A stretch of DNA of 64,000 nucleotides, from assembly GCA_024673055.1 (NCBI GenBank), contig GCA_024673055.1_4537.1; one strand, written 5' to 3'. Positions within the stretch are counted from its first letter, which is position 1. Each line of letters begins with the position of its first letter. Of this stretch, positions 2,180 to 34,329 are shown one piece after another. Position numbers and translations under genes: made by a program. Under the pieces are notes generated by a model. That model searched no databases. It was not told the DNA's origin and saw only the letters and a program-made list of their open reading frames with translations. The stretch comes from a phage.

Positions 2180-3112
2180 GTGGCTAAATTTAATTGCGAC
2201 GATTTGGTTGAAAAAGGTTTAGTTCATAAGAAAACATATAAAGAAGGAGAGTATTCTGGTCTATCTGTTCTTAAGTATAAGAACAAAGTTTTCTGGGATA
2301 ACTTATGGAGCATTGATTCTCGTCTTCTAGAATGTCGCGGAATCGTTGTTGATGCTGATGACAATGTTGTTATTTGGCCTTTCACTAAGATTTTTAATCG
2401 TTTTGAGAATGGCACAGATCTACCAGCGGATGAACTTGTAGATGTGGTTCGTAAAGTAAATGGTTTTATGGCCTCTGTAGGTGTATATAAAGGTCAACTT
2501 ATTGTATCGACAACAGGAAGCCTTGAATCAGATTTTGCAAGTATTGCAAAGAATCATATTGTTTCAGAGTGTGATGACATAGAACATTTCATCAAATGGA
2601 CAGAGAGTGCAAAAGCAACTTTCCTTTTTGAAATCTGTGATCCTTCTGATCCGCATATTGTCGAAGAAGAACCAGGTGCATACTTAATTGGTGCCAGAAT
2701 TCAAAATCCTGATGGGACAAGTTTTATGTTACCTGAAGGTGCTCTTGATGGAATTGCTTCTGTCACCAAATTTAAGCGTCCTGAAGTTCATCCAATGGTT
2801 AAGTTTTCAGATGTTGTTGAAATGTCTAAACATTGTAAACACGAAGGGTTTGTAGTTCGTGAAACAAACTATCCGTTCAACTTACTTTTAAAAATTAAAT
2901 CACCACACTATCTTACTAAGAAGTTTCTTATGCGCGGTGGAGATAAAAAGTGGGATCTGATTTGGGATAATCCAAAAAATGCCAAACAAATGGTTGACGA
3001 AGAATATTACGCTTTGTTAGAATGGATTCGAAATAATTTTACGAAGATTCAATGGGCTGCTTTAAATCAGCAAGAGCGACGTGAAAAAATCGAAAACTTT
3101 TTTGGAGGATAA
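2180..3112 (+). CDS. rnlA: RNA ligase 1 (T4 gp63/Rnl1 family)
   Basis: GTG start after AAGGAG; LECRGIVVD and KVNGFMASV (nucleotidyltransferase motif I lysine) and STTGSLESDFASIAKNHI align with recalled T4 Rnl1 LECRGIMFE / KEDGSLVST / KSKGSIKSEQALMANGIL. Confidence 0.7.
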   Translation: MAKFNCDDLVEKGLVHKKTYKEGEYSGLSVLKYKNKVFWDNLWSIDSRLLECRGIVVDADDNVVIWPFTKIFNRFENGTDLPADELVDVVRKVNGFMASVGVYKGQLIVSTTGSLESDFASIAKNHIVSECDDIEHFIKWTESAKATFLFEICDPSDPHIVEEEPGAYLIGARIQNPDGTSFMLPEGALDGIASVTKFKRPEVHPMVKFSDVVEMSKHCKHEGFVVRETNYPFNLLLKIKSPHYLTKKFLMRGGDKKWDLIWDNPKNAKQMVDEEYYALLEWIRNNFTKIQWAALNQQERREKIENFFGG

Positions 3113-3517
3113 ATGAAACAACTTATCATTTTACGTGGTGTTTCAGGTGCTGGTAAATCTACAGTAGCAGAAATTATTTCTGAAGGTTATTGGCCTATCT
3201 GTGAGGCAGATCAATATCATTACACAGAGAGTGGTGTTTACGATTGGAAGCCAGAAAATGTAGGTAAAGCACACGCATGGTGTCAGGGTATTGTTCGTGA
3301 TGCTATGGCATCTAATCTTAACAAGATTATTGTTTCTAATACTTCAACCACAGAGAAAGAACTTAAACCTTATCTAGCTCTTGCTGAAGAGTTTGGTTAT
3401 CAAGTTATCTCTTTAGTTGTTGAAAATAGGCACGGTAATGATTCAATTCACGAGGTTCCACAATATATCCGTGATCAGCAAGAGAAACGTCTTCGTGGTT
3501 CACTTAAACTTCAATAA
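3113..3517 (+). CDS. P-loop polynucleotide-kinase-like protein
   Basis: Walker A GVSGAGKST at N-terminus; 134 aa; resembles kinase domain of T4 Pnk; adjacent to Rnl1. Confidence 0.55.
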   Translation: MKQLIILRGVSGAGKSTVAEIISEGYWPICEADQYHYTESGVYDWKPENVGKAHAWCQGIVRDAMASNLNKIIVSNTSTTEKELKPYLALAEEFGYQVISLVVENRHGNDSIHEVPQYIRDQQEKRLRGSLKLQ

Positions 3518-3526
3518 GGAGAAATA

Positions 3527-3853
3527 ATGCAGATTTATACAGATGATCGTAAATATGAGACAATTTTAGATGAAGATACTGGACGAATTACCGTTCTCCG
3601 TCACGGTGAAGAGTGGCGTGATGAAACGGGAGACAATTATATCTTGTCTCTGATTCATCTTATTGAACAAATGCGTGATGATTACGCTGAACTGCATTAT
3701 GAAAATGAGGCTAATAAAGTAAAATTTGAAAATGAATTAGAAGAGAAAGAATCCGAAATGGTATATCTAAAAGAAGAGATCTCCCGTTTGGAGGAAGAGA
3801 TTGATGCTCTTCAAGAAGAGATTTACGAACTCAACAACGAACTTAACGCTTAA
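3527..3853 (+). CDS. hypothetical coiled-coil acidic protein
   Basis: 108-aa ORF, AAGGAG SD; C-terminal heptad-like EEEI repeats. Confidence 0.5.
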   Translation: MQIYTDDRKYETILDEDTGRITVLRHGEEWRDETGDNYILSLIHLIEQMRDDYAELHYENEANKVKFENELEEKESEMVYLKEEISRLEEEIDALQEEIYELNNELNA

Positions 3854-3862
3854 GGAGGGATT

Positions 3863-4054
3863 ATGAAAAAAGATATCGTTGTTGTTGGTTGGCTGACTTG
3901 CCCTTGTGGTAGTAATGACATAACTGTAAACACAGAGGGTGATAAAAATTATTTATTCTACGGGGATAAAATCACTTGCAATACCTGCGGACGTGTTGGT
4001 ATTATAGAAACCGATGATTGTTGTGCTTTTGAATCTTGGGATGAAGAAGAATGA
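3863..4054 (+). CDS. small zinc-ribbon protein
   Basis: CPCG...CNTCG paired Cys motifs; AAGGAGG SD. Confidence 0.45.
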   Translation: MKKDIVVVGWLTCPCGSNDITVNTEGDKNYLFYGDKITCNTCGRVGIIETDDCCAFESWDEEE

Positions 4055-4272
4055 GTACTGCATTTTATGTTCGTAGCGGAGACGAGGATTTTTTAGCTAC
4101 TTTTGATGACGGTGATCTTGAAGATATGTATGAAGATATGCTTGACTATGCCAAAGGGCAAGGTTTCACAAGCATTGATTACATGTTGGCAACATCTACA
4201 ACGTTACTCGACGCAGATTTGGATGAAGTGTGTAACAGATTGAAAATTTCAGTTTTTAAATGGGAGGACTAA
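4051..4272 (+). CDS. hypothetical acidic protein
   Basis: 73-aa ORF overlapping stop/start with neighbours. Confidence 0.4.
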   Translation: MSTAFYVRSGDEDFLATFDDGDLEDMYEDMLDYAKGQGFTSIDYMLATSTTLLDADLDEVCNRLKISVFKWED

Positions 4273-5387
4273 TGCAACAAACAAATCAAACGCTGTATGG
4301 TAAAGATTCAAAAGGAAAACTTAAACAGTGGACAGTGTATACAGATGGTGCAGTTGTTACTGTAGCTCATGGAAGAGTAGGTGGAAAAATCACAGAAAAA
4401 TCTTATACAGCAGAAGCAAAAAACATTGGTCGCTCCAATGAAACAACACCGGAAGAACAAGCTGAACTTGAAGCTTTTGCCAAATGGACAAAACAGTTAA
4501 AGAATGGTTATTATAAAACAAAAGAAGAAGCTGAAAACCATGTTCCTTCCACACCAATGAAATGCCAGGATTATAAAGATTATCCTGAAAGGGTTGTGTT
4601 CCCTGGTTATGCACAATACAAACTGAACGGGTTACGTTCTATGATTAACATGAAAGGAGAGTGTTTATCAAAAGCTGGGGAAGTGTATAACCTGCCACCT
4701 CATTGGAAAGGTATTCCAAACTTTATTAGTGAAGTTGTTGGTCATCCTCTTGATGGTGAAGTGTTTGCTGGGTTAGGTGTCCTTAGTCTGCAACAAATTA
4801 ACAGCGCCTGGAAGAAGCATAATGCAAATACACCTTTGCTGAATTATTACGTATACGATATTCCAGTTCCAGATCTACCGTTTGAAAAACGTGTTGATGT
4901 TCTTGCTGCTCTTAAGGCAGTAGTTGAAGATTATGGTCTTAATGAGCTTATTTGTGTAGTTCATACAGAGTATATTGAAAACCAAGAACAGTTTGATGCT
5001 TTCTATGAAAAAGCTTTACTTGAGAAAGCTGAAGGTGTAGTATATCGTAATGCTCACGGAGTTTACGAATTTGATAAACGTTCTTATGACGTTATTAAAC
5101 GTAAGCCTCGCCATACCCTTGAAGTTAAAGTAACAAATTCAAAAAGTGATAAAAATGGCGATGGAGTGTTGACAGGTGAGATGGAAAATGGTAAAGTAGT
5201 CGAATTCTTAATGCGTAAAGATGCTCATGAGACTATCAATTATCGTAAAGCAGAGAATGCTTCTACCTTGATTAATCAGTTTGTTGAAATAGAGTATGAA
5301 GAATTTTCAGATGAAGGTATTCCAACAAAACCTGTTGGTGTTCGTATTCGAGAAATGATCCCAGGCACTTGGGAACCAGCAGAATAA
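4272..5387 (+). CDS. ATP-dependent ligase-family nucleotidyltransferase (probable DNA ligase)
   Basis: Start ATG 4272 after GGGAGGA; motif I variant KLNGLR (KxDG-type), LDGEV, EGVVYR, DVIKRK spaced as in covalent nucleotidyltransferases. Confidence 0.5.
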   Translation: MQQTNQTLYGKDSKGKLKQWTVYTDGAVVTVAHGRVGGKITEKSYTAEAKNIGRSNETTPEEQAELEAFAKWTKQLKNGYYKTKEEAENHVPSTPMKCQDYKDYPERVVFPGYAQYKLNGLRSMINMKGECLSKAGEVYNLPPHWKGIPNFISEVVGHPLDGEVFAGLGVLSLQQINSAWKKHNANTPLLNYYVYDIPVPDLPFEKRVDVLAALKAVVEDYGLNELICVVHTEYIENQEQFDAFYEKALLEKAEGVVYRNAHGVYEFDKRSYDVIKRKPRHTLEVKVTNSKSDKNGDGVLTGEMENGKVVEFLMRKDAHETINYRKAENASTLINQFVEIEYEEFSDEGIPTKPVGVRIREMIPGTWEPAE

Positions 5388-10635: not shown

Positions 10636-10705
10636 AAACACAATATCCCACCAGGGGAATATACAGCTAAAAAGGTGAGCAATATTGGCAGGTGAACCAA
10701 AAATA

Positions 10706-11260
10706 ATGTGGGGTGAAGGAACACCCTGGAAAACACAAGCTGAATTTTATACTTATCTTAGGGGATGTTTTAGAAAAGCATGGATGAGACACCCTAATAA
10801 AATTAAGGTTATCAATGCAAGGCGTTTTAAAGTTGATCGAGTAGATAAAGACGGCAATGTGATGATAGACAAGAAAACTGGAAAACCAAAACAAGTTTGG
10901 AATTGTGAGTGCGAAATATGTGGACATAGAGGAGGAATGAAAGACTTCCAAGTGGATCATATTCACGCAGCAAAACAACTTCAATGTTTTGATGATATTC
11001 CTCTTTTTGTTTTCCGTTTAATCTATGTGAAAGAAGAAGATTTGCGAATGGTTTGTAAATTGTGCAACTCTATTCTTGCTTATGCAGACAAGCAAGGCAT
11101 ATCTTTTGAAGAAGCAAAAGCTGAAAAAGAAGCGATAGCTTTGTGTAGAGCTAAGAAAGATAAAGCGTGGCTGAAGAAGCGTAAAATAGAACCTGAAAGC
11201 ACAGTAGCAAAACGCCGTAAACAAATAGTCAAAATCCTATTGCAGGAAATTGAAAGTTAG
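10706..11260 (+). CDS. HNH-family endonuclease
   Basis: CECEICGH...FQVDHIHAAKQ...CKLCNS His-Me finger/HNH-like Cys/His pattern. Confidence 0.5.
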   Translation: MWGEGTPWKTQAEFYTYLRGCFRKAWMRHPNKIKVINARRFKVDRVDKDGNVMIDKKTGKPKQVWNCECEICGHRGGMKDFQVDHIHAAKQLQCFDDIPLFVFRLIYVKEEDLRMVCKLCNSILAYADKQGISFEEAKAEKEAIALCRAKKDKAWLKKRKIEPESTVAKRRKQIVKILLQEIES

Positions 11261-11296
11261 TATAAGATAACTATACTGAAAGAGAGAGGAGGTTTT

Positions 11297-11905
11297 ATGC
11301 AGATAGTATGTGATTGGGATTTAGTTGTGGCTCCATTAGATGTTGCTTGGTTAGAATGGTTGAATAAGATTAGTGGACTTGGTGTTAAGATAGATACATT
11401 CACAAAAAATGCAGACTATGATCTTACCAACTACTTTCCTGGTTTCAGGGAGGAGTTCAATATAGATCCTTACGGATTTCTGGATAATCCTCATCTCTAT
11501 GATACAATGGGTTTTGTTTCAGGTATGCCAGATTTCTTAAAGTATGTTTCAAGGAAAGGTAGCAATCTTTTGATCGCAAGTGTGACAAAAGGTGGTCACT
11601 TAAGTTCTAAACATAAGCATGTTTTAAGAACGTTAGATACGATTGATTTTAGCAAAGGATCTGGTAACGGCTTTTTTGCTACGAAAGAAAAATACTTATT
11701 GCCTTGTGATATAGCAATAGATGACAGGGCTGATAACCTACTATATTTTCCAGATGAAGTGGTTAAAATATATTTTAATACGCCTTATAAAGATAACCAT
11801 CTAGAAGAACTAAAGAAAAAACCAAATGTTGTGATCACAGGTTTAGAAGATCAGTGGCTAACATGTTTGGATGTTTTTAACACTTTGAACAATTTTAAAA
11901 ACTAA
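11297..11905 (+). CDS. hypothetical protein (possible HAD-like nucleotidase)
   Basis: 202-aa ORF; N-terminal IVCDWDLV (DxD-like) and distal IDDRADN are weakly HAD-like. Confidence 0.4.
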   Translation: MQIVCDWDLVVAPLDVAWLEWLNKISGLGVKIDTFTKNADYDLTNYFPGFREEFNIDPYGFLDNPHLYDTMGFVSGMPDFLKYVSRKGSNLLIASVTKGGHLSSKHKHVLRTLDTIDFSKGSGNGFFATKEKYLLPCDIAIDDRADNLLYFPDEVVKIYFNTPYKDNHLEELKKKPNVVITGLEDQWLTCLDVFNTLNNFKN

Positions 11906-11914
11906 GGAGAAAAA

Positions 11915-12913
11915 ATGACAAAACAGATTTCGGCTAGTATTATTGCGCATTCCATCACTGAAGACGGAAAAGAGATTGTAACTTTTGAACTAGAATATCC
12001 ACGTATTATTCATTCAGAATTGATGACTCACCGCCTGTTCAGTCGTAATGCTGCTTCTAGCCGTGCTATACCTGTTAAAACACTGATTGAAATGGTGCGA
12101 AATCAACCTGCTCGTCCTTATCGTTTTGGGGCTAACCAACCTGGTATGCAGGATAAAGGTGTTGATCACGATGCTCTTATTGATGCAGGTTATACTGCTC
12201 AAGAGTGGTGGGATCTTGCCGCGCTTAGTGCAGCACGTTTTGCAGAAGAATTCTCTTTGGCAGGGTACCACAAACAAGTTGCAAACCGTCTTCTGGAACC
12301 TTTCCAACGAATTAAAACAGTTCTGACAGCAACAGAATATGAAAATTTCTGGTGGCTGCGTGATGACAAAGAAGCCGATCCTACTATCGAAGCTTTGGCT
12401 AAAGAGATGCACAAAGAGTATGAAGGATCTACACCAGAAGTGCTGAAACCAGGGCAATGGCACACACCTTATGTAGACCATTTCTATGATACTATTGGCA
12501 CAGAAGGTGACGATCATTTTGTTTTTGGTGGATACTACGTTCAAGATGAATCTGGAGAAGTTGTTGTGCTTACTTTGGAAGAAGCCAAAGCTATTTCAGC
12601 TTCGTGTTGTGCACAGGTTAGCTATCGTCGTTTGAATGCAACTAAAGATAAAGCTTTAGATATCTATGGTCGTTTGCTGACTGGGCGCAAGGTTCATGCT
12701 TCTCCGTTTGAACATCAAGCCACTCCAATGCAAGAAACATACGAACAATATGGAGAGAACTGTTTTGAAGATTTGTTTATCAATGCTCCTTGGGATTTTA
12801 ACTCTTGGGAGCCAGGCATTACCCATGTAGATCGTAATGGTAAGTTTTGGTCTGGCAATTTCAAAGGCTGGATTCAACATCGTCAACTTTTAACAAATCA
12901 TACTAAATGGTGA
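11915..12913 (+). CDS. thyX: ThyX-like flavin-dependent thymidylate synthase (divergent motif)
   Basis: THRLFSRNAASSR matches the ThyX RHRxxSxxxxSxR signature except R->T; occupies td position upstream of nrdA. Confidence 0.5.
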   Translation: MTKQISASIIAHSITEDGKEIVTFELEYPRIIHSELMTHRLFSRNAASSRAIPVKTLIEMVRNQPARPYRFGANQPGMQDKGVDHDALIDAGYTAQEWWDLAALSAARFAEEFSLAGYHKQVANRLLEPFQRIKTVLTATEYENFWWLRDDKEADPTIEALAKEMHKEYEGSTPEVLKPGQWHTPYVDHFYDTIGTEGDDHFVFGGYYVQDESGEVVVLTLEEAKAISASCCAQVSYRRLNATKDKALDIYGRLLTGRKVHASPFEHQATPMQETYEQYGENCFEDLFINAPWDFNSWEPGITHVDRNGKFWSGNFKGWIQHRQLLTNHTKW

Positions 12914-12929
12914 TCTGTTTAAATAGTTA

Positions 12930-12957
12930 TTGACTTTAGTATTAGTTTTAGTATAAT
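12930..12957 (+). promoter_or_regulatory. sigma70-like promoter (TTGACT-16-TATAAT)
   Basis: -35 TTGACT 12930-12935; -10 TATAAT 12952-12957. Confidence 0.55.
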
Positions 12958-12970
12958 ATAGCACAATACT

Positions 12971-12990
12971 GGGAGGAGGTGAGTCCTCCC
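12971..12990 (+). promoter_or_regulatory. leader stem-loop after promoter
   Basis: GGGAGGA-ggtgag-TCCTCCC perfect 7-bp stem immediately downstream of promoter. Confidence 0.45.
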
Positions 12991-13011
12991 ATTCAAAATG
13001 AAGGAGAAAAT

Positions 13012-13422
13012 ATGTCATTAGTAAATACTACAACTTGGGCTACCGTAAGCATGTCTACTGTAATGTCTACCCCTATCTGGAAACTAGAATCAAATAAACA
13101 CAATGGTAATATCCCACACGAGAAACAAAATGCTGTTATTAGAGCGTCGCTTGTAATGCTGGGTATGGCTGAAGATTCACACTATTCTGTTGAGCGTAAT
13201 GTGAATATCCGAAGCAATAACGATAAGCGAGTAGTGTTTGCAAATACAACGCTTTTCACTTTCCCTGTTTCACCTAATTGTGGTTTTAAACGAATCTACC
13301 AAGAAAATGATATTTTTCATTTTGGTGATGAAGAATTTACAGGTTGGGGTGCGTCACATATTAAGATGGATGATTTCGGTAACTCTTATGATCCTGCGAA
13401 AGCAGATGATACTAATCAATGA
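13012..13422 (+). CDS. hypothetical protein
   Basis: ATG 13012 after AAGGAG; track ORF 12979..13422 trimmed to SD-supported start. Confidence 0.5.
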   Translation: MSLVNTTTWATVSMSTVMSTPIWKLESNKHNGNIPHEKQNAVIRASLVMLGMAEDSHYSVERNVNIRSNNDKRVVFANTTLFTFPVSPNCGFKRIYQENDIFHFGDEEFTGWGASHIKMDDFGNSYDPAKADDTNQ

Positions 13423-13430
13423 GAGGGACA

Positions 13431-13673
13431 ATGACTGATAATAAATATGAAGGCTGTGAAATCGAAGTCTATTTTGATGAAACTGTTGGTTGTAATGTAA
13501 CTGTAATTCTAGACACTTCAAAACGTTTATCTCCTAAAAGACAAGAAGCAGACCGTCGAGCAAAAGCAAAAGGGTTTGATGACATAACTCATTTTGAAGG
13601 TTTTCTATATGCTAATGGACTTTTTAATGAAATGAAGTTCGGTTATGATGTAGATGTTTTGAATATGCATTAA
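13431..13673 (+). CDS. hypothetical protein
   Basis: ATG 13431 after GAGAGGGACA. Confidence 0.45.
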   Translation: MTDNKYEGCEIEVYFDETVGCNVTVILDTSKRLSPKRQEADRRAKAKGFDDITHFEGFLYANGLFNEMKFGYDVDVLNMH

Positions 13674-13689
13674 TAATAGGGAGGAGAAG

Positions 13690-15933
13690 TTGATTCGTTT
13701 TGTAACTAAATCTAACGGTAAGACAGAGGAGTTTAATCCAGAAAAACTTCGCAAGTGGTCTGAATTTGCAGCAGGTAAACTAAACTGGTCTGAAATTGAA
13801 TTAGAAGCTGTGAAGCGGTGTTATGACGGTGTGTCTACACGTGATCTGCATAAAGCAATGATTGCAGCGTGTATTGACAAGAAAACACAAGCTTACAGTG
13901 ATATGGCAGGAAGACTTCTTCTGGGTATGATTTACAAACAGGCTCATGGGGGATACCACAGTATCCCTTCACTGAATACCTTTTATCATGATATGGTAGA
14001 ACGTGGACATTGGGCTAAAATGGATTATACTGATGAAGAGATCAAAGAAATCGGTAAGATTGTAAAGCATAATAAAAATCTAACTTATGGTTATTCTGTT
14101 TTACGTCAGATGGTAGATAAATATCTTATTCGAGATGCAGTAAACGATGTTGTGCATGAGTCCCCACAGTTTCTTTTCATTGGTATCGCAATGAAGGTTA
14201 TGGAGATCCAACCAAAAGAACGCCGTATAGAAGATATTAAAAAACTTTATACTTATGTTAGCGATCTTAAGATTAATCTGCCATCGCCGTATCTGACAAC
14301 TCTACGAACTCCAATCAAAGGAAGTGCGTCTTGTTGTTTATTCCGTGCAGACGATACGGCAGAGTCTTTAGCCATTGCTAACTACTTAGCTCATGAGTAT
14401 ACGTTGAATAACGCAGGTATTGGTGTTAATCTTCAAACTCGTGCCACAGGTCAAGGTGTTAAGAATAATCGTATTATTCATGGTGGTCTTCTTCCGTATC
14501 TGAAATGGATGGAAGATAGTGTTGGAGCTTCGAAGCAAGCAAGCCGTGGAGGTAGTGCTACAGTTACCTTTACCATACTTGAACCAGATTTCGACGATCT
14601 GATTCGACTGAAGAATCCAACAACACCTATAGATAAACGAGTAGACAAACTGGATTATTCTATTGTTGTTAACCGTTCATTCTTGCGTCGAGCAGCAAAA
14701 AACGAAGATTGGATGTTAGTTAGTTGTGATGATGCTCCTGAACTTTATGAAGCTTTGTATAAAAGTGAAGAAGAGTTTGATGCAGTTTATGGCAAAGTAA
14801 GCCGTCGTCGCATTAAGAAAAAATTTGTTAAGGCTCGTGATCTTCTGACAGAGATTATTGTTCAACGTGCAGAAACAGGACGTATTTACATGTTCTTTGC
14901 TGACAACGTTAACAACCATACACCTTTCCTGGATACGGTGTATCAATCAAACCTGTGTCAAGAGATTTTCTTACCGACTAAAGCTTTCCACAATATGCCG
15001 GATCTCTTTACTGGTGAGAATACTGAAGATCAAGAATTGGCTTTATGTTTCTTATCTTCTATTGTTGCTGGTCGTGTATTACCTGAAGAATATGAAGATG
15101 TTGCATACTACACTGTATTGACAATTGACAACGTTATTGAAACAATGGATTATCCATTTAAACATAACGAAATAACTGCTAAAGCACGTAGATCTATTGG
15201 TGTAGGCATTACAAACTTAGCGCATTACTTGGCAAGTAATTTTGTAAATTATTCAGATGCTTATGCTAAAAAATTAATGCATGAACTTGCAGAACGTCAT
15301 TACTTTTGGTTGGCAAAAGCCTCTCTGCGTCTGGCTAAGGAAAAAGGTAATGCGGAGTGGATCGATAAGACCAAATGGCCTCAAGGTTGGCTACCAATTG
15401 ACACTTATGCTAAAACAGTAGATAGTATCGGTAATTTTGATCTTAAAATGGACTGGGAAGGCTTACGTGCTGAAATCATTGAACAAGGTGGTATCCGTAA
15501 CAGTGTCTTGGCTGCTATTGCACCCAATGAGTCCAGCAGTTTGGTAAGCAATACTACTAACTCTCTGTATCCTGTTCGTGATACCATTATGTATAAACAA
15601 AGTCAGAAAGGCAGTGTATTATTTATTGTTCCAGACTATGAAAAACTGAAAATGTTCTACCAATCTGCCTGGGATACTCCGGCTAAAGATCTTGCAGAAA
15701 TGTATGGTATCTTTACCAAGTTTACGGACCAAGGAATTTCTTGTGATTCTTGGTTAGATTATTCTAAATTGGTAGGGGGACGTTTATCAGTTAAAGAAGA
15801 GATGAAATTTATTTTGAACTTTGCTAGACTGGGTGGTAAGTCATTGTATTACCTTAATAGTAGAACAAAATCAGCAGACTCTTTAGCACAAGAAGATTCT
15901 GAAGACGAAGGATGTAGTGCCTGTAAAATGTAG
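13690..15933 (+). CDS. nrdA: ribonucleoside-diphosphate reductase large subunit (class Ia)
   Basis: 747 aa; N-terminal ATP-cone-like region; C-terminal CSAC tail; TTG start after GGGAGGAG. Confidence 0.9.
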   Translation: MIRFVTKSNGKTEEFNPEKLRKWSEFAAGKLNWSEIELEAVKRCYDGVSTRDLHKAMIAACIDKKTQAYSDMAGRLLLGMIYKQAHGGYHSIPSLNTFYHDMVERGHWAKMDYTDEEIKEIGKIVKHNKNLTYGYSVLRQMVDKYLIRDAVNDVVHESPQFLFIGIAMKVMEIQPKERRIEDIKKLYTYVSDLKINLPSPYLTTLRTPIKGSASCCLFRADDTAESLAIANYLAHEYTLNNAGIGVNLQTRATGQGVKNNRIIHGGLLPYLKWMEDSVGASKQASRGGSATVTFTILEPDFDDLIRLKNPTTPIDKRVDKLDYSIVVNRSFLRRAAKNEDWMLVSCDDAPELYEALYKSEEEFDAVYGKVSRRRIKKKFVKARDLLTEIIVQRAETGRIYMFFADNVNNHTPFLDTVYQSNLCQEIFLPTKAFHNMPDLFTGENTEDQELALCFLSSIVAGRVLPEEYEDVAYYTVLTIDNVIETMDYPFKHNEITAKARRSIGVGITNLAHYLASNFVNYSDAYAKKLMHELAERHYFWLAKASLRLAKEKGNAEWIDKTKWPQGWLPIDTYAKTVDSIGNFDLKMDWEGLRAEIIEQGGIRNSVLAAIAPNESSSLVSNTTNSLYPVRDTIMYKQSQKGSVLFIVPDYEKLKMFYQSAWDTPAKDLAEMYGIFTKFTDQGISCDSWLDYSKLVGGRLSVKEEMKFILNFARLGGKSLYYLNSRTKSADSLAQEDSEDEGCSACKM

Positions 15934-15944
15934 TAGGAGAACAG

Positions 15945-16601
15945 ATGAAGAAGGGTAAACGTAAAGTTACCGTTCTCACAGAGAGGGGAGAAATCCCCTT
16001 GATTGTGGATGTTGAACGTAGATTGTGGGAAGGTGGTGTTATCAATGGGAAAAGGGTTAATACATTCATAGACCCTTCCTATGCAGCTTGGAAAGGCATG
16101 TTTAATCGTGCATATCGTATGGAAAACATTAGACCAGGTTATAAAGATGTTACTGTGTGTGATGCTTGGTTCACCTTTTCAAACTTTGATAACTGGTATC
16201 AAGAACACAATGTGGAAGGCTTTGTTTTAGATAAAGATCTTGTTCTTGAAGGAAATACTGTTTATTGTCCTGAATATTGTAGGTTTGTTCCTCCTTATAT
16301 AAATACACTCTTAAATTATGCTAAGAGGTATGAAAGAAAATACTTACTAGGAGCACATGTTAGGAAAGATGGTAAGATTTATGCCAAAGCTTCTGGGAGT
16401 AAAGGAAAGCATTTAGGCTACTTCGCTACAGAGGAAGAGGCACACTTCGCTTGGCTAAAAGATAAAGCTAAGTCAATCAGGGAAACAGCGGATCGTTACA
16501 AAGAGGAAGAACATTTTTATCCAGAGGTGTACAACACTCTTGTAAACAAGGCGGATTTCTATTGGCACCTGGCGGAAACAAAAACAGTATTTCGAGGCTA
16601 A
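15945..16601 (+). CDS. HNH/AP2-type homing endonuclease inserted between nrdA and nrdB
   Basis: Position identical to T4 mobE; AP2-like GYFATEEEAHFAW segment; LDKDL...GN...PEYCRFV HNH-like core. Confidence 0.5.
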   Translation: MKKGKRKVTVLTERGEIPLIVDVERRLWEGGVINGKRVNTFIDPSYAAWKGMFNRAYRMENIRPGYKDVTVCDAWFTFSNFDNWYQEHNVEGFVLDKDLVLEGNTVYCPEYCRFVPPYINTLLNYAKRYERKYLLGAHVRKDGKIYAKASGSKGKHLGYFATEEEAHFAWLKDKAKSIRETADRYKEEEHFYPEVYNTLVNKADFYWHLAETKTVFRG

Positions 16602-16644: not shown

Positions 16645-17730
16645 ATGGCAGCAATTAATTTACACAATGAAGTTTACAAAACAGGAAAATATCCAGTATT
16701 TTTGGGGGAGCAATTAGGGATCTTTGATTCTGTTAACGTAACTTATCCAGAAATGCACAAACTCTACAAACTTCAAAAAGCACAAGATTGGGATGAAAAC
16801 GAAGTTAATCTGGATCAGACACGTAAAGATTTCGTAGCTTGTTCTAAAAACAACTATGATGTTATGATTAAAAACTTATCGTTCCAATGGGAAAATGATT
16901 CTCTTGCAAAATCAATCATCACTTTGTTCTCTCCATTCTTGAGTAACAATGAAGCCTGTGCTATGATGATGAAGCAGAGTGAAATGGAAGTTCTCCATGC
17001 GTTAACGTATTCTGAAATAATCCGTCAATGTACTCCAGATCCAATTGAAGTCATCAATCAGATTATGATTAATGATAAAATTTTCAATCGTATGGGTATC
17101 ATTGCTGATATCATGGGTCAGTTGGAAGAAGCTGGTCATAAGTATGCTCTAGGATTGATTGAAGCTAACGATGAACTTCGATTACTGATTCTTAAAGGGA
17201 TGGTAGCCCTGATTGGATTAGAAGGTATTCAGTTTATATCTTCCTTCTCTGCTACTTTTGCTATGGCAGAACAACAACTGTTTGTTGGGGCTTGTAAACT
17301 GATCCAGAAAATTATGCTAGATGAAATCTTGCATGTTAAGATGGATTATGCTGTAATTGATGCATTGATGCATGACCCAATTTGGCGTAAAATTTACGAA
17401 GATAATATTGAAGAGTTGACTTTGATCCTCGACACTGTTGTTGAACAAGAGGAACAGTGGTGTGACTACCTGTTTAGTGAAGGTCGTTTTATTGTAGGTC
17501 TTAACGCCGAATTGTCTAAACAGTGGGTTTATTTCAATGCTGCTCCTATTTATCGTCGATTGAAAATGAAAGCCAAGTTTAAAGCACCTAAACATAGTCC
17601 TTTAGCTTGGATGGAAAAATGGTTGAATCCTGATTTGATTCAGTCAGCAGCCCAAGAGATTCAGTTAACTAATTACAAATTGAATTCAGCTAACAAAGAT
17701 CTCTCTGATGATGAGGAGCTTGACTTCTAA
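16645..17730 (+). CDS. nrdB: ribonucleoside-diphosphate reductase small subunit
   Basis: 361 aa; acidic C-terminal tail (LSDDEELDF); immediately downstream of nrdA/homing endonuclease. Confidence 0.85.
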   Translation: MAAINLHNEVYKTGKYPVFLGEQLGIFDSVNVTYPEMHKLYKLQKAQDWDENEVNLDQTRKDFVACSKNNYDVMIKNLSFQWENDSLAKSIITLFSPFLSNNEACAMMMKQSEMEVLHALTYSEIIRQCTPDPIEVINQIMINDKIFNRMGIIADIMGQLEEAGHKYALGLIEANDELRLLILKGMVALIGLEGIQFISSFSATFAMAEQQLFVGACKLIQKIMLDEILHVKMDYAVIDALMHDPIWRKIYEDNIEELTLILDTVVEQEEQWCDYLFSEGRFIVGLNAELSKQWVYFNAAPIYRRLKMKAKFKAPKHSPLAWMEKWLNPDLIQSAAQEIQLTNYKLNSANKDLSDDEELDF

Positions 17731-18561: not shown

Positions 18562-18570
18562 GGAGAGAAA

Positions 18571-19137
18571 ATGAAAGTAGAAAAAACAAAAATTGAAGGT
18601 GCGGTAATTATCAAACCAGACGTTTATAAAGATGATCGTGGTTTCTTTTTAGAAACATACAATGAACAAAAATACGAAGATATCATTGGTAAACAAACTT
18701 TCGTTCAAGATAATATGTCTAAATCAAACTTCGGTGTTTTGCGAGGAATGCACTTTCAAACAAATAACCCGCAAGGTAAGCTTGTTCGTTGTGTAAGTGG
18801 AGAAGTATTGGATTTCGCTGTAGATTTACGTAAAGATAGTCCAACTTACGGTGCTTGGGACGGTGTTGTTCTTCGTGCACGACACCATACGCAGTTTTGG
18901 CTTCCCCCTGGTTTGGCACATGGTTTTATAGTTTTGAGTATGGACGCTATCTTTGAATACAAATGCACAACTCCATACGACCCTTCTAGCGAACAAAGTT
19001 TACGTTGGGATGATCCTGACATAGGGATCGATTGGGGCTTCGATATGATTTTTGACGAAGGTTTTAAACCTATCTTATCAACAAAAGATGCAATGGCTAA
19101 ATCTTTTCAACAGTTGCGTAGTGAGGGTGTATGCTAA
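18571..19137 (+). CDS. rmlC: dTDP-4-dehydrorhamnose 3,5-epimerase
   Basis: Cupin-fold RmlC signature DDRGFFLET and GMHFQ; 188 aa. Confidence 0.8.
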   Translation: MKVEKTKIEGAVIIKPDVYKDDRGFFLETYNEQKYEDIIGKQTFVQDNMSKSNFGVLRGMHFQTNNPQGKLVRCVSGEVLDFAVDLRKDSPTYGAWDGVVLRARHHTQFWLPPGLAHGFIVLSMDAIFEYKCTTPYDPSSEQSLRWDDPDIGIDWGFDMIFDEGFKPILSTKDAMAKSFQQLRSEGVC

Positions 19138-19973
19138 CATATCTGGTATTGGGTGGTAATGGACAACTGGGACAAGCTTTACGTAAAGTGGTTCCTTCTA
19201 ATGTATCTTTAATTTATCCTAAAGAACGTGTAGATATTACAAATTTTGAAGCTGTGCGAAACGCTATTGTTGAAGATTATGTAGACGGTGTTATTAACTG
19301 CGCTGCTTATACGGCTGTAGATAAAGCAGAACATGATTTTGCTACTGCTTTGGCTGTTAATGCGTATGGACCTGCAAATATTGCGGCAGTGTGCAGCAAA
19401 CTTAAAATTGATTTTGTGCATATTTCTACAGACTATATTTTTAATTACTCTCACCCTATTTTTGAAGATACTACACCTAACCCAATAAACAATTATGGGT
19501 ATACGAAAGAACTTGGTGAAAAAATGGTGCGAGGAGTTAACCCAAATGCATATATTATTCGAACAGCCTCGGTATATAGCGAATTTGGAAATAACTTTCT
19601 AAAAACGATGTTGTCTCGCTATAATGATGGACAACGTGATTTTATTATTGTTGCTGATCAGTTCTCTTGTCCAACATATGCTCCAGATTTAGCAGAAGCT
19701 ATTTTTGAAGTATTAAAGACAGGTTGGTCAAGGTCTGTTAAGACTTACCATTTTGCAGGAAGCCATTTTATTTCTTGGGCGGAGTTTGCGGAAAAGATCT
19801 TGACACAGATGCCAGAACCTGTTAAGATATCGGCGGTATCAGCTTCAACCTATAATGCTCCAGCAGCACGTCCGGTGAAGTCACAACTAGTAACCAGTCA
19901 CTACCTTACAAAATCAGATTTAAATAAAGGTATTGAACAGTCTTTAGCAGTATTACTTAATAAGGAGAGGTAA
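19131..19973 (+). CDS. rmlD: dTDP-4-dehydrorhamnose reductase
   Basis: N-terminal GGNGQLG Rossmann motif; YTAVDKAE and STDYIF motifs characteristic of RmlD. Confidence 0.75.
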   Translation: MLTYLVLGGNGQLGQALRKVVPSNVSLIYPKERVDITNFEAVRNAIVEDYVDGVINCAAYTAVDKAEHDFATALAVNAYGPANIAAVCSKLKIDFVHISTDYIFNYSHPIFEDTTPNPINNYGYTKELGEKMVRGVNPNAYIIRTASVYSEFGNNFLKTMLSRYNDGQRDFIIVADQFSCPTYAPDLAEAIFEVLKTGWSRSVKTYHFAGSHFISWAEFAEKILTQMPEPVKISAVSASTYNAPAARPVKSQLVTSHYLTKSDLNKGIEQSLAVLLNKER

Positions 19974-20233
19974 TGGAATTTGTAATTTTTGGTAAACCTA
20001 ACTGTCAATTTTGCGAAATGTCAAAACAACTATTAACCATGCGCAATAAACAGTTTGAATATTTAAGTCTTGATCAAGACTATGATTTAGAATCAATGAC
20101 TAAAACAGTTGTTGATCTTACCGGAGTTCCTCCACGCACATTTCCACAAATTCTATCTGAAGTGAACGGGGAGGTAACATACGTAGGCGGTTTTACCGAA
20201 CTGCGTGATCTCATGGCTCAAATTGCGGAGTAA
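19973..20233 (+). CDS. nrdC: glutaredoxin-like protein (T4 NrdC-type)
   Basis: 86 aa; CQFC redox motif near N-terminus; size and layout as T4 NrdC. Confidence 0.7.
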   Translation: MEFVIFGKPNCQFCEMSKQLLTMRNKQFEYLSLDQDYDLESMTKTVVDLTGVPPRTFPQILSEVNGEVTYVGGFTELRDLMAQIAE

Positions 20234-20238
20234 CAATT

Positions 20239-20388
20239 ATGAAAAGTAAACAGAAACGTAAGATCTTTTCTCGTGCTTTGGCAAATGAGCTGAAGTCCAA
20301 CATAAAGAAAACGAAACCAAAACGTGAGACTTCTCCAGAACATCTGTTGTTTAACGAGTTGGATCACGGAGTAGGAGACGATGAATAG
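20239..20388 (+). CDS. small basic hypothetical protein (49 aa)
   Basis: ATG 20239 after GGAG; fills gap before lysozyme. Confidence 0.3.
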   Translation: MKSKQKRKIFSRALANELKSNIKKTKPKRETSPEHLLFNELDHGVGDDE

Positions 20389-20395
20389 GAAGTAA

Positions 20396-20896
20396 ATGGC
20401 TAAAGTAGTAGATGAGTTTGATATGCTACGAGTCGATGAAGGACTGAAGCTTACTGTTTACCAAGATCATCTTGGTTATTGGACAGTTGGCATAGGACAC
20501 CTTCTGACTAAAATAAAAGATAAAGCAAAGGCTATTCAAATCTTAGATAATCTTCTTGGTCGTAAGACTAATGGAGTTATCACAGAAAAAGAAGCCCGTC
20601 AAATCTTTGCTGACGATGTTGCAAAAGTGAAGAGAGACATAAAAAACAGTACTATCTTATCACCAATCTATGATAAGGTTAGTGATACTCGTAAATTGGG
20701 AATAATCAACATGGTTTTCCAGTTGGGGTTAAAAGGTGCTGAAGGGTTTCAAAATAGCTTGACTTTAATCAGCAATGCATATTATACTCAAGCAGGTAAA
20801 AACATGCGTAAAAGCCGATGGTATAGCCAGACGCCAAACCGTGCTGAACGAGTAATTAAAGTTCTGACTTCTGGAACTTTAGATGCTTACAACTAA
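20396..20896 (+). CDS. e: T4-type lysozyme (endolysin)
   Basis: MLRVDEGLKLTVYQD...GYWTVGIGHLLTK...NMVFQLG...KSRWYSQTPNRAERVI closely parallels T4 lysozyme including the catalytic Glu/Asp/Thr region. Confidence 0.9.
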   Translation: MAKVVDEFDMLRVDEGLKLTVYQDHLGYWTVGIGHLLTKIKDKAKAIQILDNLLGRKTNGVITEKEARQIFADDVAKVKRDIKNSTILSPIYDKVSDTRKLGIINMVFQLGLKGAEGFQNSLTLISNAYYTQAGKNMRKSRWYSQTPNRAERVIKVLTSGTLDAYN

Positions 20897-20898
20897 TA

Positions 20899-20920
20899 AA
20901 GGGGCTTCGGCCCCTTCTAA
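20899..20920 (+). terminator. stem-loop (UUCG tetraloop), weak U-tract
   Basis: GGGGC-TTCG-GCCCC followed by TTCTAAAA. Confidence 0.45.
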
Positions 20921-20933
20921 AAGGAGTGCTACT

Positions 20934-21692
20934 ATGGGAAATAAAACCGCAGCTAAAACACAACGGCAGAAACTGGCTAATTCAGCAAAGATTGAAAGCC
21001 GTTATGCAGCAAAAGCGGTAGGTAATGACGATTACCGTTTAGATGAATTTATGCCTGAAGGGGACCAAAATAAGATTGTTCAAAGCATGATTTGGAATGA
21101 TCTGACTGTTGTAAATGCTCCGGCAGGGACTGGTAAAACCTCTGTTGCTTTATGGAAAGCTTTGCAGATGCTTCGTTCAGGAGACTTCCGTAAACTACTT
21201 TTTATCAAGAACCCTACTGAAGTCGGAGATGATCAGATTGGTTTCTTGTCGGGGGATAAAACAGATAAACTAGCAGCACACTATGAATCTACAAAACGTA
21301 TTTTCCAGCAATTCATGACAGCCAACAAATTGGAAAACGATATTGGATCAGGTAAGATCGAATTGAATATTCCTAACTATTTGTTAGGGGCTACCCTGGA
21401 TAATACAATCGTCATTATTGACGAAGCACAACTTATGTCAACAGAAACACTTAAACTTCTTATTGAACGTGCAGGTATTAATACGCATGTTATTGTATTA
21501 GGCGATGTTCGCCAGACATATGCAATTAAAAAACGTAGCAATGGTCTGCATCAAATTTTGGAACTTTTATATCCAGAAAATGAAGAAGGTGTTCGTGAGC
21601 CAATTGTAGATTTTATTGGATACGTTGAACTGACAACGGACGATAATAAACGTGGACGTTTGTCTAAACTGATTACTGAAGTGTTTATTTAA
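20934..21692 (+). CDS. phoH: PhoH-like ATPase
   Basis: Walker A APAGTGKTS, Walker B IIDEAQ; start ATG 20934 after AAGGAG (track start 20883 overlaps lysozyme and terminator). Confidence 0.75.
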   Translation: MGNKTAAKTQRQKLANSAKIESRYAAKAVGNDDYRLDEFMPEGDQNKIVQSMIWNDLTVVNAPAGTGKTSVALWKALQMLRSGDFRKLLFIKNPTEVGDDQIGFLSGDKTDKLAAHYESTKRIFQQFMTANKLENDIGSGKIELNIPNYLLGATLDNTIVIIDEAQLMSTETLKLLIERAGINTHVIVLGDVRQTYAIKKRSNGLHQILELLYPENEEGVREPIVDFIGYVELTTDDNKRGRLSKLITEVFI

Positions 21693-21727
21693 TAACATGG
21701 CAGGGAAGCCATTTATAAGGAGGATTG

Positions 21728-22228
21728 ATGGGTGTAGCAACAATAGCTATCGGAAGAAGCGGTATAGATGAGTGCTATCAAACGGGACTCGTAAAACCTA
21801 ACGAATTTCGTCAAATTTGTGTAAACCATATTGAAAAAGAGATTGCTCTTACTTTAGAGAATATGACCCTCCGAGATAAACTGGAAATGTTTAAATGTTG
21901 GTGTCTAGGAGAAGATTGGCTTTTAAACCATTTTCAAGAACTTTCTGATAGTAAAGAAAGCTTGTTTGATTGTATAATAGGAATAGCTGGCTCCGATCCT
22001 AGCCTTCTGCACATAACAGAAGAAGAGGCGAAGTTACTGTTCTTAAGTAATTTGTTTAATAAGAAAGCACTGCTTGTTCGTGATTGCAGTGATCTTCTTA
22101 ATAACCCGCTCGCAACGTCTGATCAAATTTTTGTTGACAAAGAGACACTACGTGCGATAGAATACATCTGCAAATATGTGAATGGCGGGAAAGCGGTTCT
22201 TAAAACATTAACAGAGGAGGAAGAATAG
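21728..22228 (+). CDS. hypothetical protein
   Basis: AAGGAGGA SD then ATG 21728. Confidence 0.5.
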   Translation: MGVATIAIGRSGIDECYQTGLVKPNEFRQICVNHIEKEIALTLENMTLRDKLEMFKCWCLGEDWLLNHFQELSDSKESLFDCIIGIAGSDPSLLHITEEEAKLLFLSNLFNKKALLVRDCSDLLNNPLATSDQIFVDKETLRAIEYICKYVNGGKAVLKTLTEEEE

Positions 22229-22920
22229 TGACGACAATTATTGCAACCAAAAATAAGATTTTGAGTGACGGTAAGGTAACTTTTGGTGGACGTGTAGATT
22301 CTATTAATTTCAAAAAGGTCCGAAAAATTGGAGATTACCTTGTAGGTGGTGCTGGTCGTCTGACCTCCGTGCTTTCTTTCTTTCAATGGTTTGAACAAAA
22401 TCTACAGTGCGAAGCAGCACGTGATGCTGTCCCTGGTTTGATGATTCACTCTGATCCAGATAAAGAAGATGAAGAGTTTATTGCACTTGTTGTTCATCCA
22501 GACGGACGTATTTTCCTGCACGAAGGTAACAACCCAACACGTGCATATCCGATTGATGAAGAATATTATGCAGTAGGGAGTGGGTCAGATTTTGCTTTAG
22601 CTGCTCTTGATGCAGGGGCAACACCAGAACAGGCTATGGAAGTAGCTAAAAAGCGAGATGCTTTTTCTGGTGGTGAAACATTTATTGAAGAACAAGACGA
22701 GATTATTGAATTAACAGATGATGATTTAGAAAACTTCTCCAAAGAAGAATTGATCAATCTTTTGAAATTCGGTAATCCCTACGGTGAAGAAGAACCTCGT
22801 AACGTGGCAGGTAACGAGGCGGATACTGAAGAAAAATCTGTTGCAGAAAACAACTTGACTTCTAAATCTGAAAATATTAATCTCGTAAATGTGGCGGATT
22901 TCGAAGGAACCGCTATTTAA
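22228..22920 (+). CDS. HslV/proteasome-beta-like Ntn peptidase with acidic C-terminal extension
   Basis: N-terminal M-TTIIATK (Thr1 nucleophile after Met removal), GGAGRL, YYAVGSGSDFALAALDAG matches HslV GSGG/active-site region. Confidence 0.55.
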   Translation: MTTIIATKNKILSDGKVTFGGRVDSINFKKVRKIGDYLVGGAGRLTSVLSFFQWFEQNLQCEAARDAVPGLMIHSDPDKEDEEFIALVVHPDGRIFLHEGNNPTRAYPIDEEYYAVGSGSDFALAALDAGATPEQAMEVAKKRDAFSGGETFIEEQDEIIELTDDDLENFSKEELINLLKFGNPYGEEEPRNVAGNEADTEEKSVAENNLTSKSENINLVNVADFEGTAI

Positions 22921-31704: not shown

Positions 31705-32190
31705 ATGTTTCAAGTAAATGTCAATGTGCATAATAGTTACTCTGATTGTGAAACGTGTGGCTATAATTCATCTAATGTTATTCGTATTAGTGGCGATTTA
31801 GGAGAAGCTTCTTTTGGAGAAGAAGCAAGTTGCTTTAGTGGTATGGATGCAGAATGGAATGATATTGCACATTGGTTAGTGAGCAAACTAAAAGAAAAAG
31901 AGAAACCATTTCCTACTCTGCTTGATCGTTCTCTTGTGGAAGATGCAGGTAAAGCATATGCAGACTATGCGTATGCAGACGGGAAATATTTGGAAGATGA
32001 TAAGGCTAACCATTTGCTTTATGTTTACTATGAAGCTGAATCTGCCTACGATAATTATTACAGCATGTCTAACATCCTACGTCTGTTTGCAGAGTTTGAT
32101 ATTTATTTCGAAGTAGAATTTTCAGAAGATGATACTTACGAGTACAATTCTTATGATCCATTTGAGGAGGAAGAATGCCAAGACGAGTGA
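31705..32190 (+). CDS. hypothetical acidic protein
   Basis: 161-aa ORF, AGGAGGGAATATG. Confidence 0.5.
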   Translation: MFQVNVNVHNSYSDCETCGYNSSNVIRISGDLGEASFGEEASCFSGMDAEWNDIAHWLVSKLKEKEKPFPTLLDRSLVEDAGKAYADYAYADGKYLEDDKANHLLYVYYEAESAYDNYYSMSNILRLFAEFDIYFEVEFSEDDTYEYNSYDPFEEEECQDE

Positions 32191-32990: not shown

Positions 32991-32998
32991 ACCACTCA

Positions 32999-33024
32999 AG
33001 GGGGCTTCGGCCCCTTTCTTATTA
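32999..33024 (+). terminator. intrinsic terminator (UUCG tetraloop)
   Basis: GGGGC-TTCG-GCCCC followed by TTTCTTATT. Confidence 0.6.
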
Positions 33025-33034
33025 GGAGAATAAA

Positions 33035-33307
33035 ATGACTGAAGAAATCCGTGATTACTACCTTGCACATTACGTTTACTACTTTGCCAATGCTACACAA
33101 AAAGGGGAAGGTAATCTTTACTTGGCAACAGGACATGGAACAGGCGTTAGGAAATCAAATATTGATAATGCCTTGGCTCAAGTGGCTGCGGGGCTAGAAG
33201 ATAAACTTCAAACACCTGTAGTTGTAGTGATGCAAAATATAAGTTACCTAGCAAGTTGTACTGAAACCGAATTTAACGCGTCTGAGACGCAATCTAACGA
33301 AGAATAA
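33035..33307 (+). CDS. hypothetical protein
   Basis: 90-aa ORF, AGGAGAATAAA SD; last + strand gene before strand switch. Confidence 0.45.
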   Translation: MTEEIRDYYLAHYVYYFANATQKGEGNLYLATGHGTGVRKSNIDNALAQVAAGLEDKLQTPVVVVMQNISYLASCTETEFNASETQSNEE

Positions 33308-33310
33308 AAC

Positions 33311-33337
33311 AAAGGCACCCAAGTGGGTGCCTTTTCT
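33311..33337. terminator. bidirectional terminator at convergence point
   Basis: GGCACCC-AAGT-GGGTGCC hairpin flanked by T-tracts on both strands between converging gene blocks. Confidence 0.6.
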
Positions 33338-33376
33338 ATTTTAGAGCGTCTCTGTTCGATTTAGGTGGGTTCTAGC

Positions 33377-33607: not shown

Positions 33608-33698
33608 ACGACCTCCTATTGCTACAGATATGAAAAAACCCGCCGAAGCGGGTTCTATTGCTACGATAGGATCACTATCCTATAGTATTGTTTCTGTG

Positions 33699-33980: not shown

Positions 33981-33992
33981 ATGACCTCCTTA

Positions 33993-34320: not shown

Positions 34321-34329
34321 TATTTCTCC

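Follow-up and report, generated by a model that had tools for sequence, protein, structure and literature searches.

The open reading frame (ORF) at positions 11915–12913 of the window, i.e. the whole 64,000-nucleotide (nt) stretch of phage DNA analysed here, encodes a protein that is, as four sequence comparisons concur, a circular permutant of the flavin-dependent thymidylate synthase ThyX, in which the segment equivalent to residues 1–59 of the canonical enzyme is placed after that equivalent to residues 60–200. The protein is probably a functional ThyX-type enzyme that supplies the phage with deoxythymidylate (dTMP). The gene and its thymidylate synthase or ThyX name are already in databases and are known as an annotation; what appears to be new is that the whole clade represents a ThyX permutant in which Arg78 and Tyr91 (Thermotoga maritima numbering) are replaced by Thr and Ala, respectively, the active-site loop is shortened and new modules are present at the termini. 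The window derives from a Phapecoctavirus, a phAPEC8-like Escherichia coli myovirus of the Stephanstirmvirinae, and its bases 11000–16000 display 98–99% identity to many Phapecoctavirus genomes, including that of phage nieznany (NC_052659). In the latter, a 98.6%-identical phage, the counterpart gene carries the annotation "FAD-dependent thymidylate synthase". The protein itself shares 100% identity with its counterpart in phage Mt1B1_P17 and 99% with other Phapecoctavirus proteins.

ThyX homology and permuted chain order

In silico analysis matched the protein to the Pfam family Thy1 (PF02511) at 33.3 bits, above the gathering threshold of 24.8, with profile positions 59–190 of 191 aligned to amino acids (aa) 22–174, and to PHROG 85, 'thymidylate synthase', with an E-value of 2.9e-108. 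A phmmer search of PDB sequences with the single protein returned no ThyX match, while a family profile, built from an alignment of 55 members (A1), matched the ThyX structures of T. maritima and Mycobacterium tuberculosis. An AlphaFold2 model based on the same alignment reached a mean local confidence (pLDDT) of 87.9 and a predicted template modelling score (pTM) of 0.87, and its significant structural matches were to ThyX only. Conversely, the ThyA-type fold was not detected, either as a match to the Pfam family Thymidylat_synt at E-values up to 10 or as a ThyA protein among the structural matches. Because Pfam Thy1, PHROG 85 and the structural matches of the model all indicate ThyX or thymidylate synthase, the Thr-His-Arg signature of the protein is not a chance motif, and the gene encodes a ThyX-fold relative. 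The first-pass annotation of this DNA, which had proposed a ThyX-like protein and suggested a PF02511 search and structure prediction as checks, is supported by both.

The family profile falls on ThyX in pieces ordered B-C-A: family positions 20–49 correspond to T. maritima residues 61–90, positions 108–171 to residues 135–200, and positions 211–261 to residues 15–60 (the T. maritima PDB chain bears a 12-residue tag). When the family hidden Markov model (HMM) was compared with a tandemly doubled T. maritima ThyX sequence, a single contiguous domain was obtained across the C-to-N junction, in which HMM positions 108–261 cover residues 135–220 plus 1–60, with a score of 22.2 bits as against 14.3 bits for the single copy. 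Similarly, hhalign produced one alignment with the doubled sequence (query 19–269 on residues 59–220 and then 1–61; 212 columns, 87% probability, E-value 4e-6), as compared to 132 columns with the single copy (query 19–175 on residues 59–200; E-value 1.6e-4). Of the T. maritima sequence employed in the doubled and hhalign comparisons, residues 15–90 and 134–200, on which the argument rests, agree with the PDB alignments. Furthermore, a re-permuted construct, in which aa 176–271 precede aa 20–175, matched Thy1 profile positions 14–190 in one stretch at 41.2 bits, compared to 33.3 bits for the native order, while a control construct cut elsewhere fell to 27.5 bits. Against the NCBIfam thyX equivalog model TIGR02170, the re-permuted construct covered profile positions 17–203 and scored 39.1 bits, the native protein scoring 31.1 bits, far under the cut-off of 87.9.

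The canonical linear order, in which the N-terminal hairpin, the helices and the His53 loop precede the RHR motif, is not found in the protein. The N-terminus of ThyX runs strand-strand-helix-helix-loop. In the model, the last helix of the module equivalent to residues 60–200 is followed by strands at aa 188–194, 201–210 and 216–219, helices at aa 221–234 and 244–255, and the HASPFEH loop, and this predicted secondary structure fits the permuted ThyX order. The new termini arose between the PFEH loop and the next strand, and each bears a clade-specific extension (aa 1–19 and aa 272–332). Neither extension has a counterpart in the canonical ThyX alignments, the hhalign match beginning at aa 19; the N-terminal one contains Ser13, which is nearly invariant across the family, and the C-terminal one consists of a variable part and then a conserved G-N-x-x-G-W-x-Q-x-R motif (Gly314, Asn315, Gln321 and the invariant Arg323). 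The permutation explains why profile annotation covers only two thirds of the ThyX domain and why the equivalog cut-off is missed. Near-identical genes carry the labels 'hypothetical protein', 'thymidylate synthase' and 'ThyX', and these mixed labels are therefore a result of the partial profile matches that the permutation causes. A literature search, outside which most subscription journals lay, identified no published description of a circularly permuted ThyX.

Active-site residues across the family

Residues were mapped to T. maritima ThyX in the hhalign register, and their conservation was assessed in a set of 143 sequences made up of the query, 135 sequences that each represent a different cluster at 50% identity, and seven distant homologues from phages. 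The HRxxSxxxxSxR signature that the first-pass annotation had placed in this ORF is present exactly as claimed, at aa 38–50, and the replacement of the first Arg of the RHR motif by Thr was confirmed (Thr38). The ThyX motif RHRX7S thus takes the form T-H-R-X7-S, with the His, the second Arg and the Ser retained. The additional claim that a conserved Gln is replaced by Ala was not upheld, as the residue before the second Ser is Leu87 in T. maritima ThyX (RHRIASYNELSGR) and there is no universally conserved Gln. In the alignment, the more telling second change is that of Tyr91 to Ala51, directly after the last Arg of the motif, which is followed by a deletion of eight residues relative to the active-site loop of T. 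maritima ThyX (residues 92–99).

The module equivalent to residues 60–200 holds Glu35 (Q75; invariant or nearly so), the motif residues Thr38 (R78; Thr in 141/143), His39 (H79; 143/143), Arg40 (R80), Ser43 (S83), Asn45 (N85; conserved), Ser48 (S88; 142/143) and Arg50 (R90; 143/143), then Ala51 (Y91; Ala in 143/143), Arg125 (at or adjacent to R147; 142/143), Asn144 (N169; 142/143) and Arg149 (R174; 143/143). The module equivalent to residues 1–59, which comprises a two-strand hairpin, two helices and the His53 loop, contributes Ser236 (S30; 143/143), His261 (H53; 143/143), Ser263 (T55), Glu266 (E58; 142/143) and His267 (H59; 142/143), and is preceded by a linker with an invariant W-H-x-P-Y (aa 182–186). 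Positions conserved specifically in the clade include His183, Pro185 and Arg323 (each 143/143) and Lys120 (142/143).

The dUMP-binding set of T. maritima ThyX (S88, R90, R147, R174 and Q75), whose roles are drawn in part from PMC11940539, is retained as Ser48, Arg50, Arg125 and Arg149, with Glu35 in place of Q75. On the flavin and folate side, H53, S30, N85 and E58 are retained as His261, Ser236, Asn45 and Glu266. Asn163, Arg165 and His178 have flavin-binding roles in ThyX, and the positions aligned to them differ (Thr138, Thr140 and Glu153, respectively). The first-pass annotation had taken the loss of flavin adenine dinucleotide (FAD)- or dUMP-binding residues as an argument against ThyX; the residues listed above stand, while Arg78 and Tyr91 are lost. 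A structural study of the T. maritima enzyme from 2025 describes Arg78 as a conserved residue that faces N1/C2=O of the reduced flavin and stabilises FADH-, and reports that Tyr91 hydrogen-bonds His53 and Arg90 and that its mutation slows flavin oxidation approximately 1000-fold; Ser30, Ser88, Asn85 and His53 contact flavin or folate (PMC11940539). Since Thr38 occurs in 141 of the 143 sequences, as Ala51 does in all of them, it is not a lesion of a single gene, and both residues are a fixed family signature. Accordingly, the family retains the nucleotide-binding part of the active site as well as its His53 side, and differs at two residues that are linked to flavin chemistry and to gating of the loop. 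The first-pass annotation had described neither the permutation, nor that Tyr91 and part of the active-site loop are lost, nor the fixation of Thr across a very large ThyX-annotated family.

Distribution of the family and genomic context

A tblastn search identified the protein in 1,035 phage records, with at least 80% of the query covered in 994, and an exhaustive profile search yielded 5,962 clusters at 50% identity, with 4,070 at an E-value of 1e-30 or better. Members include proteins of N4 (gp30), ICP1 (gp193), rV5-like phages, Pakpunavirus, phiCbK-like phages, BcepSaruman and N4-like roseophages. N4 gp30 was listed as a putative thymidylate synthase (thyX) in a 2009 paper on N4-like roseophages (PMC2784036), and gp106 as a thymidylate synthase in the rV5 paper.

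Several members are interrupted. In Flavobacterium phage FPSV-D7 (MW421580; positions 2998–4931 of locus L010), the homologue is split in two by a GIY-YIG homing-endonuclease ORF (3731–4555): the first ORF (2998–3717, 239 aa) ends just past WHIPFI and the second (4542–4931, 129 aa) contains SSPFEH and GFIQYR. The split point is the permutation junction, where the old ThyX C-terminus meets the old N-terminus, with zero residues missing. A group I intron around the endonuclease ORF was considered and rejected, as Rfam found none, and the ORF is read as a free-standing endonuclease insertion. The BFVD database holds a two-piece version from phage ECP26 (245 + 97 aa) and a truncated one from IME-SM1 (239 aa). 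In members of 550–650 aa, intein-like insertions (types judged by eye) interrupt the most conserved motifs at three sites: within or after MTHR, where the insert has an HNH-like segment; after YPRxxH, just ahead of ELMTHR; and between the His53-equivalent His and SSPFEH (representatives P0252, P0260, P0302 and P0308; P0261, P0278, P0299 and P0362; P0270, P0298, P0307 and P0383).

A scan of bacteria with one genome per species identified 315 loci, of which some are phage-like (as in Moraxella) and others are surrounded by ordinary cellular genes, outside prophages. In a complete Pseudanabaena chromosome, the gene lies between cobH-cobI and recO; in a second Pseudanabaena genome it adjoins purU and a peroxiredoxin gene, with purF also near, and in a third it adjoins sufBCD, with rdgB also near. 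On a 1.9-Mb contig of Vulcanimicrobiota, it is situated between xanthine-dehydrogenase-like genes and pth. The Pseudanabaena copies occupy positions 3995–4822, 3995–4816 and 3995–4810 of loci L086, L082 and L075, respectively, and the Vulcanimicrobiota copy positions 3992–4852 of L071. These cellular copies are shorter (271–286 aa), with a reduced C-terminal extension in which a G/N-F-x-G-x-x-x-Y-R motif is kept. Synteny is common to only two of the Pseudanabaena loci, and the case for a cellular gene therefore rests on the non-phage neighbours in three different contexts. The copies of Pseudanabaena and Vulcanimicrobiota would look like candidate housekeeping thymidylate synthases.

Among the phages, the context across loci is consistently that of deoxynucleotide synthesis. 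A B12-dependent ribonucleotide reductase (RNR) gene is found near the ThyX-like gene in Pakpunavirus SPA05, while in CcrMagneto, Bajun and Mesorhizobium phage Cp1R7A-A1 (phiCbK-like, Brevundimonas and Mesorhizobium phages) a deoxynucleoside monophosphate (dNMP) kinase gene lies immediately upstream and an RNR gene downstream. In N4, a dCTP deaminase gene is positioned 1 kb upstream of gp30, and a dCMP deaminase occurs in the context of the roseophage genes (PMC2784036). In the window, the block runs in the order NT5C-like ORF, ThyX-like gene, two small ORFs, nrdA, HNH ORF and nrdB (Table 1), with 777 nt and the two small ORFs between the ThyX-like gene and nrdA; the counterpart of the upstream ORF in phage vB_Ec-G1 is annotated '5'-3' deoxyribonucleotidase'. 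In phage T4, td lies beside nrdA and nrdB. The first-pass annotation had placed the gene in the td position upstream of nrdA: the proximity to nrdA and the nucleotide-metabolism cluster stand, while the window is not T4-like and td is an analogy only. The annotation of the whole nieznany genome lists no thyA, dihydrofolate reductase (DHFR), other thymidylate synthase, dUTPase or dCMP deaminase, and the ThyX-like gene is the only candidate thymidylate synthase annotated there.

Table 1. Coordinates of the ThyX-like gene, its segments and its neighbours in the window
Feature	Position	Strand	Basis or remark
Shine-Dalgarno AAGGAG, ATG 5 nt downstream	11904..11909	+	Direct sequence reading; overlaps stop codon of upstream NT5C-like ORF
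Complete ORF, ATG start, 332 aa + stop	11915..12913	+	Homologue of the flavin-dependent thymidylate synthase ThyX with permuted chain order
aa 1–19, clade-specific N-terminal strand (model strand 6–14) at new N-terminus	11915..11971	+	Model secondary structure
aa 20–175, equivalent to canonical ThyX residues 60–200 (T. maritima numbering)	11972..12439	+	Pfam, hhalign and PDB profile alignments
ThyX motif, aa 38–50, THRLFSRNAASSR (T-H-R-L-F-S-R-N-A-A-S-S-R)	12026..12064	+	RHRX7S...R with Thr38 for Arg78
Ala51, replaces Tyr91, then 8-residue deletion in active-site loop	12065–12067	+	Alignment
aa 176–271, linker and then module equivalent to canonical ThyX residues 1–59	12440..12727	+	Profile alignment, doubled-sequence comparisons
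HASPFEH, aa 261–267 (H53...E58-H59)	12695–12715	+	Within aa 176–271 module
aa 272–332, clade-specific C-terminal extension at new C-terminus	12728..12910	+	Alignment, conservation
NT5C-like 5'(3')-deoxyribonucleotidase, 202 aa, directly upstream	11297..11905	+	Pfam PF06941, 23.8 bits, just under threshold of 24.8
nrdA	13690–15933	+	ORF; nieznany annotation
HNH homing-endonuclease-like ORF, 218 aa, between nrdA and nrdB	15945–16601	+	ORF; nieznany annotation
nrdB	16645–17730	+	ORF; nieznany annotation

A further HNH ORF is located at 10685–11260. Promoter and terminator scans around the ThyX-like gene returned 12 sites compared to 9.6 +/- 3.2 in shuffled sequences, i.e. no enrichment; the best sigma-70-like site in the region (TTGACT, 16 nt, TATAAT; 11/12; 12930–12957) lies 17 nt past the stop codon of the ThyX-like gene and is followed by the two small ORFs and nrdA. 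Just downstream of nrdB, at approximately 18570–21850 (nieznany 19511–22789 shifted by an offset of 938), four genes specify a deoxythymidine diphosphate (dTDP)-sugar pathway of the rhamnose type (dTDP-glucose 4,6-dehydratase, glucose-1-phosphate thymidylyltransferase, 3,5-epimerase and reductase), which represents a second sink for thymidine nucleotides within the block of the ThyX-like gene and is followed by a glutaredoxin gene; four glycosyltransferase genes occur elsewhere in the nieznany genome. Outside the window, the large subunit of an anaerobic RNR is encoded in nieznany by the consecutive ORFs gp166, gp167 and gp169 with an unrelated ORF interposed (positions 43290–47364 of stretch L003, nieznany 28939–78000), which suggests a gene in pieces or an intron or endonuclease insertion. 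The GC skew switches sign at approximately 32000–36000 of the window, being positive to about 34 kb, where the cumulative skew peaks, and negative thereafter, and the gene strand switches from + to - at about 36.1 kb in the nieznany annotation (about 35.2 kb in the window).

Proposed function and comparison with known systems

As a functional permuted ThyX, the enzyme would bind flavin, assemble the usual multi-subunit active site and, with methylene-tetrahydrofolate and reduced flavin, convert dUMP into dTMP for the DNA of the phage, with no need for DHFR. This reading is favoured by the homology and fold, the conservation of active-site residues, the neighbouring genes of deoxynucleotide synthesis, the lack of another annotated thymidylate synthase or DHFR in nieznany, the placement of intein-like insertions in conserved motifs and the chromosomal copies in Pseudanabaena and Vulcanimicrobiota. 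The functions of the lost Arg and Tyr may have been assumed by residues that are invariant specifically in the clade, with Arg30, Lys120, His183, Gln321 and Arg323 as candidates; such compensation is plausible because it is at the active-site loop that both new extensions begin. For the biology of the phage, the most likely outcome is the ordinary one, i.e. that it makes its own dTMP. We further propose, with less than even confidence, that the clade constitutes a distinct class of flavin-dependent thymidylate synthase not described before, being a permutant with a rewired active site in which Arg78 and Tyr91 are dispensable owing to clade residues (Arg323 and Gln321, or Arg30, Lys120 and His183).

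A number of points weigh against the assignment as a functional ThyX-type enzyme. Arg78 and Tyr91 are absent family-wide, the loop is shortened by eight residues, the positions aligned to Asn163, Arg165 and His178 differ, and the score lies far under the thyX equivalog cut-off. The compensating residues are candidates put forward from sequence conservation, and their placement in the active site is presumed. A literature search, which again did not extend to most subscription journals, found no experimental activity test of any clade member, the thymidylate synthase names being similarity-based. Finally, the restriction-modification (RM) sensitivity data discussed below come from Vequintavirus and phi92-like isolates, with no Phapecoctavirus among them.

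The same family-wide changes (Thr for Arg78, Ala for Tyr91 and a shorter loop), together with the low equivalog score, would also fit a ThyX-derived enzyme with another chemistry, such as a flavin-dependent C5-hydroxymethylase of dUMP (or dCMP) or another C5-modifying enzyme. In this scheme, the exocyclic methylene intermediate would be released unreduced to water or another nucleophile and the modified base incorporated into phage DNA; 5-hydroxymethyl-dUMP has reportedly been recovered from quenched ThyX reactions. The exocyclic methylene intermediate is part of the ThyX mechanism (PMC8989533). However, phages that carry the ThyX-like gene (Vequintavirus and phi92-like isolates) are exceptionally RM-sensitive, and thymine hypermodification is therefore disfavoured in them; moreover, no hypermodification genes adjoin the gene in any locus examined. 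N4 and similar phages contain ordinary thymine. Known phage hydroxymethylases are of the ThyA type, and for a ThyX-type hydroxymethylase a literature search retrieved only similarity-based annotations. As the gene is also the sole thymidylate-synthase-like gene annotated in nieznany, and as copies are found among housekeeping genes in bacterial chromosomes, a C5-modifying activity is considered unlikely. Thus, of the two functions offered by the first-pass annotation, a flavin-dependent thymidylate synthase is favoured, while a diverged pyrimidine-modifying enzyme is disfavoured by the context, the RM sensitivity of relatives and the chromosomal copies.

Methylation of a ribonucleotide or of RNA uracil in place of dUMP, as in the ThyX-fold UMP/dUMP methylase PolB, appears very unlikely: PolB (PDB 4p5a, polyoxin biosynthesis) has the canonical linear order and an antibiotic-biosynthesis setting, whereas the phage gene is set among genes of deoxynucleoside triphosphate (dNTP) synthesis. 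The loss of Arg78 and Tyr91 and the score under the equivalog cut-off could alternatively mark a catalytically dead ThyX relic or a protein with a binding or regulatory role only (e.g. sequestering dUMP or flavin). This is regarded as extremely unlikely, given that approximately 20 positions equivalent to those of the active site show little or no variation in the 143 members, which share at most 50% identity, within a family of approximately 6,000 clusters, that intein-like insertions occur within the conserved motifs, and that the gene is kept in small streamlined genomes such as that of N4.

If a permuted thymidylate synthase of a distinct class is indeed encoded, thousands of phages (among them N4, ICP1, rV5-like, Pakpunavirus and phiCbK-like) and some bacteria (Pseudanabaena and Vulcanimicrobiota) would have it as their main thymidylate synthase, and its kinetics or gating, its flavin or reductant preference and its inhibitor profile could differ from those known. 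ThyX attracts study both for its unusual methylene transfer mediated by flavin and as a target for antibacterials, and current mechanistic models assign to Arg78 the stabilisation of the flavin hydroquinone anion and to Tyr91 the roles of proposed acid catalyst and loop gate. A large natural family that has the dUMP and His53 sites in a permuted chain and lacks Arg78 and Tyr91 thus offers a ready test of these models, and also shows how circular permutation can be studied where several subunits build the active site. Its relevance is mainly to ThyX enzymologists and to those who maintain annotation models.

Compared to canonical ThyX (T. maritima TM0449, M. tuberculosis ThyX, PBCV-1 A674R and Helicobacter pylori ThyX), the phage protein differs in its permuted order, in its new terminal extensions of 19 and approximately 60 residues, and in the replacement of Arg78 by Thr and of Tyr91 by Ala, the deletion of eight loop residues and the changes at N163, R165 and H178. 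N4 gp30, rV5 gp106, ICP1 gp193, the Pakpunavirus 'thyX' and the phiCbK-like 'putative thymidylate synthase' (PHROG 85) are orthologues with 32–73% full-length identity, which share the same permuted architecture and the same Thr and Ala signature, with no essential difference. T4 Td, a ThyA-type enzyme, is analogous in role and in its place by nrdA and nrdB in a lytic phage, but its fold and mechanism are unrelated to those of the ThyX-like protein, as ThyA yields dihydrofolate and needs DHFR.

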